Source: an uncultured Gemmatimonadales bacterium (GTDB lineage: Bacteria; Gemmatimonadota; Gemmatimonadetes; Longimicrobiales; Longimicrobiaceae). From it: a stretch of 64,000 nucleotides of DNA. How positions within the stretch are numbered: position 1 is the first letter of the stretch; each line of letters starts with the position of its first letter. Below, one piece after another: positions 11,153 to 44,538 of the stretch. The stretch spans positions 448,001 to 512,000 of the forward strand of contig OY970303.1 of the NCBI GenBank assembly GCA_963716255.1, in the 5' to 3' direction. The notes under the pieces were generated by a model. That model was not told the origin of the DNA, made no database searches, and saw only the letters and a list, made by a program, of their open reading frames with translations. A program made the position numbers and the translations under genes.

Positions 11153-14100
11153 CTACGGTTCCTCCTCCCCGTCGTCGCCGTCCGGGGCGGCTACGGGCGC
11201 CCCGGGACGGCCGGGGCGCGGGCGCGACATCCGCGCGCGCCGCGCCTCGGCGCGGTCCAGCGTGCGCCGCCGCTCGTCCTCGGCCGCCGCCGGCTCCTCG
11301 CGCAGCTCGTCGAGCCGCCGCGCCAGGTCGGCCAGCGTGGGGTGCTGGAAGAGCTCGGCCAGCGACAGCGCCGCGCCGAAGCGCTCCTGGAGCCGGGAGT
11401 GGAGCTGCACCAGCAGGAGCGAGTGCCCGCCCAGGTCGAAGAAGTTGTCGTGCGCGCCCACGCGCGGGATCCCCAGCGTCGCCGCCCACGCCCTCGCGAC
11501 CGCCTCCTCGGTGGGGGTGCGGGGCGCCACGTACTCGCGCTCGGCGCCGGCGCGCTCGCCGGGCGCGGGGAGCGCCAGCCGGTCCAGCTTGCCGTTGGGC
11601 GTGAGCGGAAGCCCGGCCAGCGCCACGAAGGCGGAGGGGACCATGTACTCGGGGACGCGCTCGCGCAGCCAGGCGCGCAGCTCGCCGGCGGAGGGCGCAT
11701 CCTCCCCCGCTGCGGGGACGAGGTACGTGGCGATGCGCCGGTCGCCGGGCGCGTCCTCGCGGACCACGGCCACCGTCTCGGCCACGGCGGGGTGGGCGCG
11801 CAGCGCGGCCTCGATCTCGCCCAGCTCGATGCGGAAGCCGCGCACCTTGACCTGGAAGTCGGTGCGCCCGAAGTACTCCAGCTGCCCGTCGGCGCGCCAG
11901 CGGACGCGGTCCAGCACCCGGTACATGCGCGACCCGGCCGGCCCGAAGGGGTCGGGGAGGAAGCGCTCGGCGGTGAGGTCGGGGCGGCCGGCGTACCCGC
12001 GCGCCAGGCCGTCGCCGGCCAGGTACAGCTCGCCCGGGACGCCCACGGGGACGGGCTCCATCCCTGCGTCCAGCACCCGCGCCGCGGTGTTGGCCACCGG
12101 CCGCCCCACGAGGACCGGACCGCCTCCCGGGGCGGCCACGAAGTGGGTGGAGTAGGTGGTGTCCTCGGTGGGGCCGTACAGGTTCCCCACCTTCGCCACC
12201 GTCCCCAGCGCGTACAGCTCGCGCGCGAGGTCGGCGGGGAGGGGCTCGCCGCCCAAATTGAGTGTGCGCACCCCCGGCGGAATGCCCCCCGCGCGCAGCA
12301 GCTCCGCCGCCGCGGTGGGGACCATGCTCGCGTGGACCACGGGCTCGGCCACCGTCGCCAGCTCCAGCGCGTTCTCCACCATCACCAGCTTCCCGCCCCA
12401 CGCGAGCGTCCCGAAGACCTCGGCCACCGACACGTCGAAGTTAATGGAGGTGGAGAAGAGGAGCGCACTGCGCTCCTCGTCCGAGACGTTCTCGCGGAGC
12501 CAGTGCAGGAGGACCACCACGGACGAGTGGCGGATCATCACGCCCTTGGGGCGGCCGGTGGAGCCGGAGGTGAAGATGACGTGCGACAGGTTCTCGGGGA
12601 GCGCGCCGCTCTCCGGCACCTCGGCCGATGCCGCGTCCACGGCGGCGCGGACGGCGTCCAGGGCGAGCGTGCGGGTCCCCGCGGGGAGCGCGCCGGCCAG
12701 GCGGCCGGAGGTGAGCACCAGCGACACGCCGGCGTCCTCCTGCATGTAGCCCAGCCGCTCGCGCGGGTAGGTGGGGTCCAGCGGGACGTAGGCGCCGCCG
12801 GCGCGCAGTACGGCGAGCATGGCGACGACGAGCTCCGGCGTGCGCTCCAGGCAGATGCCCACGCGCGTCTCGGGCCCCACGCCCAGCCCGCGAAGGTGGC
12901 TCGCCAGGCGCCCCGAGCGCTCCTCCAGCTCGGCATACGTCACCGTCGCGCCGCGGAAGGAGGCCGCGGGCGCGCCGGGGGTGCGCCGGGCCTGCGCCGT
13001 GAACAGGTCGTGCACGCGCAGCCCGGCGGGGAGGGCGCGCCGGGGGTCGTTCAGCTCTTCGAGCACCCGGCGCCGCTCCGCCGTGGGGAGGAGCGGAAGC
13101 TCGGCCACCACCCGCTCCGGCTCCGCCGCGAGGGCGCCCAGCAGCACGCCGAAGTGCTCCAGCATGCGGTCGATGGTGGAGGCGTCCCACAGCTCGGCCC
13201 GGTACGCCAGCGTCCCGCCCAGCCGCTCTCCGTCGTCGCCCATGGCGAAGACCAGGTCGAACTTGGCGGTGCCGGCCCCCGCGTCCAGCTCCTCCAGCTC
13301 GCCCTCGCCCAGGCGCAGCCTCGCGGCGTCGGCGTTCTGGAGGGAGAAGGTGGCCTGGAAGAGCGGGGTGTGCGACAGGGAGCGCGCCGGCACGATCTCC
13401 TCCACCAGCCGCTCGAAGGGGACGTCGGCGTGGGCGTAGGCGCCGAGCGCGGCCTCGCGGACGCGGCGCAGCAGCTCGCGCGCGTCCGGCTCGCCGGACA
13501 GGTCGGCGCGCATCACCAGCGTGTTGACGAAGAACCCGATCAGCCCCTCGACCTCGACGCGGTCGCGCCCGGCCACGGGGGCACCCACCACCACGTCGTC
13601 GCGCCCGGCGTAGCGCCCCAGCAGCGCCTGCCAGGCGGCGAGGAGCGTCATGAACAGCGTGGCCCCCTCGCGCCGGGAAAGCGCCCGCAGCGCGGTGGAG
13701 GTCGCCGCGGGGAGGGTGAACGACCGGCTCCCGCCGGCCTCCCCGGGGACGCGGGGGCGCGGCCGGTCCGTGGGCAGCTCCAGGACCGGGGGCGCGCCCG
13801 CCAGCCGCTCGCGCCAGAAGTCGAGCTGCCGCTCCAGCACCGGCCCGTCCAGCCACGTCCGCTGCCACGCGGCGAAGTCGGCGTACTGCACCGGGAGCGG
13901 CGCCAGCGGCGAGGGCCTTCCCGCCTGGAAGGCGTCGTAGAGCGCGGACAGCTCGCGGACCAGCACCTCCATGGACCAGCCGTCGCTGACGACGTGGTGC
14001 ATGTTCAGCAGCAGGGCGAAGTCGGCGTCGCCCAGCCGCACCACGGAGGTGCGCAGGAGCGGCCCCCGCGCCAGGTCGAAGGGCAGCGCCGCGTCCGCGG

Positions 14101-44300: not shown

Positions 44301-44538
44301 CCACGATCCCCTGCAGCGGCACGCGCGTCCCGGGGAGCGCCCGGAACACGGTGCGCAGCACCTCGTGCCCCTCCGCCGCCGCCTCGACCGCGCGCCGCAG
44401 CGCGTCCACGTCGGCCTCGCCGCGCACGGCGACGACGCAGGTGGCGTTGTAGACGGGACGCGCCTCGCGCGCCTGGAGCGCCCAGACGCGCCGCTGCTGC
44501 GGTGAAAGACGGAAACGGGCCGTGGTCTCGTGAGCCAT
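41332..44538 (-). CDS. NRPS with a degenerate C (interface-like) domain, A (Glu-type) and PCP
   Basis: Starts MAHETTARFRLSPQQRR. The C motif has decayed to VHALCAD. The A code DGKDLGVVDK is one change from the Glu code DAKDLGVVDK. PCP LGGNSLL. Confidence 0.9.
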   Translation of the reverse strand: MAHETTARFRLSPQQRRVWALQAREARPVYNATCVVAVRGEADVDALRRAVEAAAEGHEVLRTVFRALPGTRVPLQGIVESLPPAWKMLDDGAATAEALVGALDEAPLSFEDGPLFQAVLAPAGEGRFLLALRVHALCADAASMHLLVREVAGAYAAIAAGGEAAAPEIQYADVSEVFNDLLESEETQAGRDYWARAERSGADDYALPHALREGDGFAPRVVEREVDPATAARARELAGELDAAPSAVLLAAWALLLGRLAGSEEPEVGVAFDGRVYEGLDAAPGAFVRYLPVRLAAGGGATFRGVAAAAAAALAERYEWQDYLDPARDGAEGPEHFAFGMDWEERPEPAGAAGAEFSILELRARSERFGVRLTGIAEGEGLRLALEHDAHRVSARDAERMADRLLALLDDAAARPDAPAAELELLPDAELRYVLALGRSLDEAPADRCLHDLFAEQAARTPERPAVVAAGRSLSFGELDALSGRLANLLRGLGVRPESRVGLCMERSPEMLAGLLGILRAGGAVVALDPMYPADRIAFMAGEAGIEVFVTQASVRERGLLPAGRAVCMDADRERIDAMPAAAPDAGTLPENAAYVIYTSGSTGRPKGVVVQHGSAANLVSALDAAVYRGREGLRVSLNAPLVFDGSVKQWVQLLRGHTLHVTPEAERMSPERMLAWVRATELDVLDCTPTLLKGLLSAGLGDGPEHVPGTILSGGEALDPATWARLLALPDTETFNVYGPTECTVDATAGSVREHPHAPTVGRPIPSTRVVMVDAGLRPVPFGVAGEVCLAGPRVARGYLGDPARTAEKFVPDPFGGVPGARMYRTGDLARFGPDGAVEFVGREDGQVKVRGVRIELGEVEAVLCEHPRVADTVAAVFEAEGEAQLVAYFVARADGRDDEDELQGELRDHLRGRLPEFMVPAMVVPLAEVPRTRSGKADRRALPDPRELQKKRRAAYVAPVGEVESALAGIWQEVLGVERVGMHDNFFDLGGNSLLVVQAYDRITEAMGEKLTLVELFQYPTVTLLAGRLSAGQEDAGASLSQAEQRALKQREAMQRQRRPAAGPRG

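Follow-up and report, generated by a model that had tools for sequence, protein, structure and literature searches.

The 64,000-nucleotide stretch analysed here (the window; G000:C1:448001-512000, where G000 is the 8.42-Mb, single-contig source genome of an uncultured Longimicrobiaceae bacterium) carries a hybrid cluster, part non-ribosomal peptide synthetase (NRPS) and part polyketide synthase (PKS), that encodes the megasynthase proteins A, C, D, E and F on the (-) strand, which also carries all of the neighbouring genes described below. Positions without a genome label are window positions, and G009 to G015 and other such numbers denote relatives. The reading given a little better than an even chance is that this cluster is a starter hub, with a branch and with hand-off of the chains to lines encoded elsewhere. 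Protein A, a TauD-family dioxygenase, protein C and the PKS, protein D, would build a lipid-X-(hydroxy-Glu-like)-ketide unit, with the order taken from gene adjacency and the chemistry, like all of the hand-offs, predicted from sequence. The C-terminal helix of D would offer this unit to condensation (C) domains of the ENVES type, with the dead epimerisation domain of D acting only as a spacer, and the unit would pass in parallel to proteins E and F and probably also to five remote ENVES NRPSs heading operons 4-7 Mb away. Protein F would then hand its chain to a remote ketosynthase (KS) class (G000 3040924, 4743987 or 6724625), and the chain of protein E would go to an LCL protein, also encoded elsewhere, whose head is of the LSxExLxLLALLL type. 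Release would occur on the remote lines, and the product would hold two ketide units from two different PKSs.

A preliminary description of this DNA drew attention to two NRPS proteins with similar ends, and all of the motifs that it quoted are present. Protein C (41332..44538) ends in a peptidyl carrier protein (PCP) with GGNSLLVVQ (41565-41539) and ELFQYPT (41490-41470), followed by a basic tail (41409-41356), and protein F (11153..27385) ends in GGHSLLLVQ (11431-11405) and ELFQHPT (11356-11336), followed by a second basic tail (11263-11222). The remaining NRPS PCPs of the cluster read SLLA (7/7), and the acyl carrier protein (ACP) of the PKS reads SVQA. In a census of G000, SLL[LV] was found in 8/9 PCPs that precede a KS in the same protein versus 2/311 that precede an LCL domain, and 10 of the 11 proteins with an N-terminal modular KS have a basic-tailed NRPS end upstream, at 6 kb or less. 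Because SLL[LV] and the basic tail track KS-preceding PCPs genome-wide, the end of protein F is by class a true PCP-to-KS donor, as had been proposed. The supposed similarity of the two terminal carriers is narrower than described, since both have the KS-donor motif and a basic tail but share only 53% identity and fall into separate clades.

The class to which F belongs points away from the PKS of its own operon. In a tree of PCPs with their tails, F groups with the G000 donors 3055260, 4755156 and 6735741 (bootstrap 98), and C forms a clade of its own (bootstrap 100); the terminal segment of F (11153..11536; PCP, basic tail and acidic end) is thus assigned to the class of these three KS donors and not to that of C. 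The three donors precede the KS paralogues 3040924, 4743987 and 6724625 (KS-AT-KR-T-C-A-T-...), which in a KS tree lie within a clade (95) that excludes D. Across 20 adjacent PCP-KS pairs of G000 the identities co-vary (Mantel rho 0.69), and the KS of the nearest PCP ranks first in 10/20 pairs and among the top three in 13/20 (chance 0.16); such pairs share ancestry and are not independent, so that these figures are a guide to class and not a proof of specificity. The carriers nearest to F are the donor of 6724625 (0.66), a PCP with its KS in cis (0.62) and the donor of 3040924 (0.61), and the C/D pair ranks 11th of 20 (0.53). Relatives supplied 43 further PCP-KS pairs; in these, each of the seven PCPs that most resemble F stands before the remote KS class, and D orthologues follow a C-like PCP in 9/9 cases and an F-like donor in 0/9. 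The acidic-ended tail of F stands directly before the remote KS class in G015:C11 (tail only), and an F-type tail lies one gene before it in G012, G014, G015:C10 and at 3.05 Mb in G000, with the last adenylation (A) domain code of F recovered in three of these four cases (at 3.05 Mb in G000, the tail only). Transfer of the chain from F to a KS of this remote class is, on these data, reasonably likely. Between the F-type tail and KS 3040924 lies a stand-alone A-PCP (G000:C1:3053303-3055351) that has the A code of protein C and no C domain, and that is kept in G012, G014 and G015.

The preliminary description had instead favoured a loop, in which the starter would pass to D, then to F, to D again and finally to E. 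What speaks for such a loop is that F ends in a true KS-donor class while D is the sole KS of the operon, that an F-type tail closes the cluster in six genomes, and that PKS reuse has precedent, proposed for pepstatin (PMC12081711) and shown for thalassospiramide (10.1101/560987). The carrier of F, however, is not of the donor class of D, and a second PKS that could accept F is, at the level of sequence classes, at hand in the three KS-AT-KR-T-C-A-T paralogues whose donors are the closest kin of F (3 of the 11 N-terminal modular KS proteins are of the matching class). The loop would also leave the chain on protein E, which has no release domain and whose tail class normally precedes another head; G014 lacks E, the PKS of G010 is not followed by an ENVES head, and nothing evident would stop repeated cycling. 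A loop through D is accordingly regarded as very doubtful.

Protein D (34465..41304) is a PKS with KS, acyltransferase (AT), ketoreductase (KR) and dehydratase (DH) motifs, an ACP and a degenerate epimerisation domain, and its closest proteins are labelled Longimicrobiaceae or Gemmatimonadota. A full-length orthologue is present in 8/8 same-genus genomes, and in the other 62 genomes the best matches (12 candidates scored per genome) included none; the predicted starter, formed by a fatty acyl-AMP ligase (FAAL) protein, an NRPS and the PKS, is conserved across the genus. The epimerisation domain of D reads HPLVVD, and the second His is replaced in all nine close orthologues listed; as the domain is degenerate in all of them, it is judged not to epimerise. 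The C-terminus consists of TPEDF (34554-34540) and a donor helix ending in LIRRAD (together 34468..34554), which is the proposed docking element for ENVES C domains. TPxDF tails occur four times in G000, the LIRRAD-type helix occurs solely on D, and the final helix of D is conserved across orthologues. In G029 and G051, which belong to another genus, a D-like PKS without an epimerisation domain keeps the helix and stands directly before an ENVES gene. Of the features of communication-mediating (COM) docking, a donor helix that follows TPxDF at the C-terminus is found at D, as is an acceptor of the DCL type; a catalytically competent epimerisation domain is lacking in D, and the whole domain is absent from G029 and G051. 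The premise of the preliminary description that a DCL-type head calls for a working epimerisation donor therefore fails here, both for D with its missing catalytic His and for the genome, where 3/19 DCL-type N-terminal proteins follow a protein ending in an epimerisation domain (23 heads counted, four dropped: three of dual epimerisation/condensation type and one split by a frameshift).

The gap of 580 bases between D and E (33883..34464) contains repeats with hundreds of matches genome-wide (seen at 33890-34460). At this position five relatives (G009, G011, G012, G014 and G015) carry a gene that joins a luciferase-like monooxygenase to a DCL-like domain that is catalytically dead (G014:C412:13332-15968 is one example). 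The fusion is absent in G000 and G013, and it is also seen in myxobacteria; its dead C domain may dock the monooxygenase on the PKS tail, much as an interface domain would. G014 has two copies of the PKS (C22 and C412), of which the C22 copy lacks the TauD gene and the interface module between the FAAL protein and the PKS.

The N-terminal C domains of E and F share a 12-letter motif (33471-33436 and 26980-26945), and the close similarity ascribed to them stands in so far as they are 56% identical. Five remote paralogues are 43-55% identical to them, so that the two are, by sequence, members of one family and not a private pair. In G000 the ENVES C domains form a clade of seven (support 1.0) within DCL, and five of the seven head remote operons that lack an epimerisation donor (4.76, 6.75, 7.06, 7.46 and 7.67 Mb), 4-7 Mb from the window; HHxxxDG is kept in all, and orthologues of these donor-less operons recur in relatives. 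When controls were added, the ENVES clade (0.995, 17 sequences) had a sister group (0.845) that included 11/20 distant post-PKS or monooxygenase-fused C domains and two from relatives, and 0/38 control post-epimerisation C domains. This placement, together with the nesting in DCL, agrees with the earlier suggestion that both C domains derive from the DCL type and accept from the tail of the PKS. One LIRRAD donor faces seven ENVES heads, which at sequence level is a pattern of one donor with several acceptors; acceptor docking regions that are nearly identical and confined to one cluster were not found, as C-domain identity is 43-56% and 5/7 heads are remote.

If the ENVES domains are the acceptors of D, as these trees suggest, D would be a local branch point and possibly a genome-wide hub. 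The branch from D to both E and F is probable. It was offered as an alternative in the preliminary description and has turned out to be the better-supported half of that proposal. In G014 an F-type gene follows the PKS, and no E-type gene separates the two. That D also feeds the remote ENVES lines is given somewhat less than an even chance. The branch could also be purely local, with D feeding E and F, the type II thioesterase (TE) releasing two lipopeptides, the tails being relics and the remote ENVES domains being independent starters. The cluster does contain a TE, an exporter and genes for precursors, the remote domains keep the catalytic motif, and 3/5 remote lines run on to a TE. Against it, the tails are kept by class across genomes that are 10-35% diverged, and the ENVES domains nest among post-PKS acceptors (the remote ones lie inside DCL in trees built without reference starter C domains). 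In addition, no acyl-supply genes were seen upstream of four remote operons among the genes listed, although true starter domains would need none. A purely local branch is therefore considered unlikely. Six further DCL-type C domains that stand first in their operons and have no epimerisation donor form a second clade (support 0.998; 1094035, 5245641, 5381078, 6591761, 6748523 and 7115995), which suggests either a second hub or DCL-derived starters.

Protein E (27397..33882) has an ENVES C domain followed by A-PCP-C-A-PCP and a PGQTE...MSPEEV tail, and the destination of its chain can be predicted from tails of this type. The eight other PGQTE-type tails of G000 are followed by an LSxExLxLLALLL head in five cases, by a gene starting with an A domain in two, by nothing in one and by a DCL domain in none; the seven LSxExLxLLALLL heads of the genome all lie outside the window. 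One of them (G000 3059503) has no NRPS upstream, bears an F-type tail at its end and is near KS 3040924. In G015 an LSxExL head lies inside the cluster, behind two ENVES genes; the notion that G000 3059503 is this gene relocated was given up, as G015 carries both. Directly behind PKS D of G010 stands an NRPS with an LCL head, a class that does not match the tail of the PKS, so that this operon does not appear to be self-contained.

A colinear route from D to E to F, in which the tail of E would dock on the C domain of F and the chain would then be released through the type II TE or passed on elsewhere, has in its favour the gene order, the gap of only 11 bases between E and F and the same tail-to-ENVES adjacency in five genomes. 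It is at odds with the tail census (0/8 before DCL, and 2/8 before a gene starting with its own A domain, as would be expected for parallel inputs) and with the F-type gene that occurs without E in G014. E and F also look like paralogues over C1 and C2; their second C domains (30258 and 23662) both read HHxxxDE and are sisters, so that the two proteins resemble duplicates. A colinear line is on this evidence improbable, and the view of the preliminary description that the line does not follow gene order is upheld.

Several observations nevertheless weigh against the starter hub with branch and remote hand-off. The lead of F's preferred partners is modest (0.66 and 0.61 versus 0.53), the PCP that comes second (0.62) has its KS in cis, and the co-variation of PCP and KS can result from co-duplication instead of specificity. 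In G000, G011, G012, G013 and G015 a gene of the E type is kept immediately ahead of another ENVES gene. In the tree with controls, 9/38 controls join the ENVES group one node further out. COM helices are described as promiscuous (PMC9113145), and therefore the three other TPxDF donors of G000 could serve the ENVES domains. The remote ENVES domains may have turned into starters that use acyl-CoA, and 2/5 remote ENVES lines reach no TE by gene order. G009, which is 96% complete, has D, yet with these queries neither an ENVES domain as best hit nor a tail of the F type was found in it; absence of ENVES domains is weak evidence, because the best-hit test, in which one best match per genome was placed in the tree (30/33 matching genomes), missed a real ENVES domain in G029.

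The orphan end of F is the norm in G000, which has roughly one hundred NRPS/PKS open reading frames (ORFs). Among 20 KS-type donors (picked by eye), a KS is the next megasynthase gene in 10 cases, lies two genes on in one and is missing in nine. By class, the orphan KS-type donors can be assigned to single PKSs (at 5.79, 7.98 and 7.99 Mb), with five donors by class for the KS-AT-T-reductase at 7.99 Mb and three for each of the other two KSs (5.79 and 7.98 Mb). Orphan ends might alternatively be remnants left by rapid shuffling of NRPS genes, or artefacts of assembly, and the assembly does contain many frameshifts as well as repeats between genes. The same junctions recur in independent assemblies, however, and the catalytic motifs are intact, which makes this explanation highly improbable. 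At G000:C1:352753-366083 a KS-type donor directly precedes a post-PKS-type head with no PKS between, a layout repeated in G015:C12; this adjacency suggests that the 5.79 Mb PKS acts in trans. A locus that would suit a loop better than the present cluster is G000:C1:5775190-5829770, where a KS-AT-KR-T protein (5790459) is accompanied by two local donors of the same class (5778237 and 5816649) and by two local heads of the class that follows this KS (5799337 and 5816649); within the same block lie an extender cassette of the FkbH type and a lanthipeptide cassette that has been inserted. Searches of the open-access literature yielded no report on a docking network of chromosome-wide extent in these bacteria, and the L. 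terrae genome announcement lists clusters only (PMC7291104).

Upstream of D, the genes are consistent with assembly of a lipid-linked starter. Protein A (46001..52708; FAAL-ACP-C-A-PCP-C by Pfam, both C motifs intact) would carry out lipid initiation and add the first residue, and it ends in a C domain. The TauD-family dioxygenase (44894..45940; PF02668), whose position is kept in relatives and in other phyla, is predicted to hydroxylate the residue on protein C. Protein C consists of a non-catalytic, interface-type C-like domain with a HALCAD motif, an A domain and a PCP with the basic tail, and it is by class the cognate donor of PKS D. Its A-domain code, DGKDLGVVDK, is one that we take to specify Glu (codes were read by a motif script that mis-picked or missed some). 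Interface-domain/TauD hydroxylation modules are defined by their layout, and that layout is present here as a C-ending NRPS, a stand-alone dioxygenase and then a non-catalytic C-like domain-A-T. An interface (I) subtype of C domain is recognised in the literature (PMC10212144). The residue on C would be hydroxy-Glu-like, and the KR and DH motifs of D predict an unsaturated ketide. A cassette of TauD, I-A-T and KS-AT-KR-DH-ACP also occurs in Acidobacteriota, myxobacteria and other phyla, where its downstream partners vary.

Protein F, an ENVES C domain with five A-PCP modules, starts at 27385; the ORF 11153-31636 of the preliminary description begins with about 1,417 junk codons. A TE or reductase (R) domain is absent from F and from every other NRPS of the window, whereas 19 TE and two R ends occur elsewhere in the genome. 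The conserved next gene after an F-type tail encodes an HPPD/HmaS-like dioxygenase (9692..10810; TIGR01263 above cut-off), which is single-copy in 8/9 genus genomes. It is followed by genes that match profiles of a pyridoxal phosphate (PLP)-dependent aminotransferase, frameshifted near 9000, and an Ldh_2-like dehydrogenase (together 7359..9680). The frameshift (8980-9010) is probably an assembly error, because orthologues read through. The trio (7359-10810) resembles a phenylglycine-type route and may make a shortened amino acid; no code for hydroxyphenylglycine (Hpg) was recognised among the A codes read. A stand-alone type II TE (6342..7139) is the sole thioesterase of the cluster and has two paralogues elsewhere in the genome. 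VioD-like and VioC-like genes (4078..6315) both pass curated cut-offs (TIGR03947, 511 bits versus 391; TIGR03946, 428 versus 419) and would provide a capreomycidine-type supply; the VioC-like protein scores higher with NF041363 (504 versus a cut-off of 345). A cyclic-peptide exporter (TIGR01194 above cut-off) and a methyltransferase-like gene follow (356..4010). Upstream of the cluster lies a low-GC island (55000-59000; GC 0.58 at 56-58 kb).

The proposed network resembles the combinatorial docking of the vatiamide and rhabdopeptide systems, but is not confined to one cluster. The qinichelin pathway reportedly shares precursors between loci, whereas here tethered intermediates would pass between loci, and vatiamide docking is said to be confined to one cluster, whereas here 5/7 acceptors are 4-7 Mb away and downstream PKSs also appear shared. 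Qinichelin resembles the present case in reportedly using several loci for one product (10.1101/163170), and vatiamide in having one donor and several NRPSs with like N-termini that give branched products (PMC10127204). COM helix-hand junctions and rhabdopeptide docking have the same C-terminal helix after TPxDF, an N-terminal DCL-type C domain and one donor with several acceptors, but the donor here is a PKS whose epimerisation domain is degenerate or absent, and cross-pathway COM communication as reviewed is engineered or in vitro (PMC9113145). Pepstatin assembly likewise uses discrete NRPS and PKS proteins in trans, with one PKS proposed to act twice; there the sole PKS is proposed to be fed both times by PepB (PMC12081711), whereas here the second donor is of another KS class, which has three copies. 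Thalassospiramide shares the hybrid line, the KR/DH-containing PKS module and the non-colinear flow, yet its pass-back occurs within a megaenzyme and was demonstrated by mutants (10.1101/560987), and the corresponding return path is unsupported here. As PKS reuse already has precedent, a true loop would be a variant of it.

Genome mining, product prediction and heterologous expression assume self-contained clusters; if the hub with remote hand-off holds, clusters cloned singly from these uncultured soil bacteria would stay silent or be misinterpreted. The genome contains a dozen donor-acceptor classes of natural origin, one of them a PCP-to-KS class for which many cognate pairs exist, so that docking specificity can be tested directly; the classes may also serve engineers as ready connectors. 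A wider proposal, held tentatively and at clearly less than an even chance, is that in this Longimicrobiaceae genus the chromosome, and not the cluster, is the biosynthetic unit: about a hundred NRPS/PKS genes would be linked by several orthogonal docking classes, D would prime seven NRPS lines over 7 Mb, and single PKSs would collect chains from scattered donors, giving a mix-and-match peptide library.

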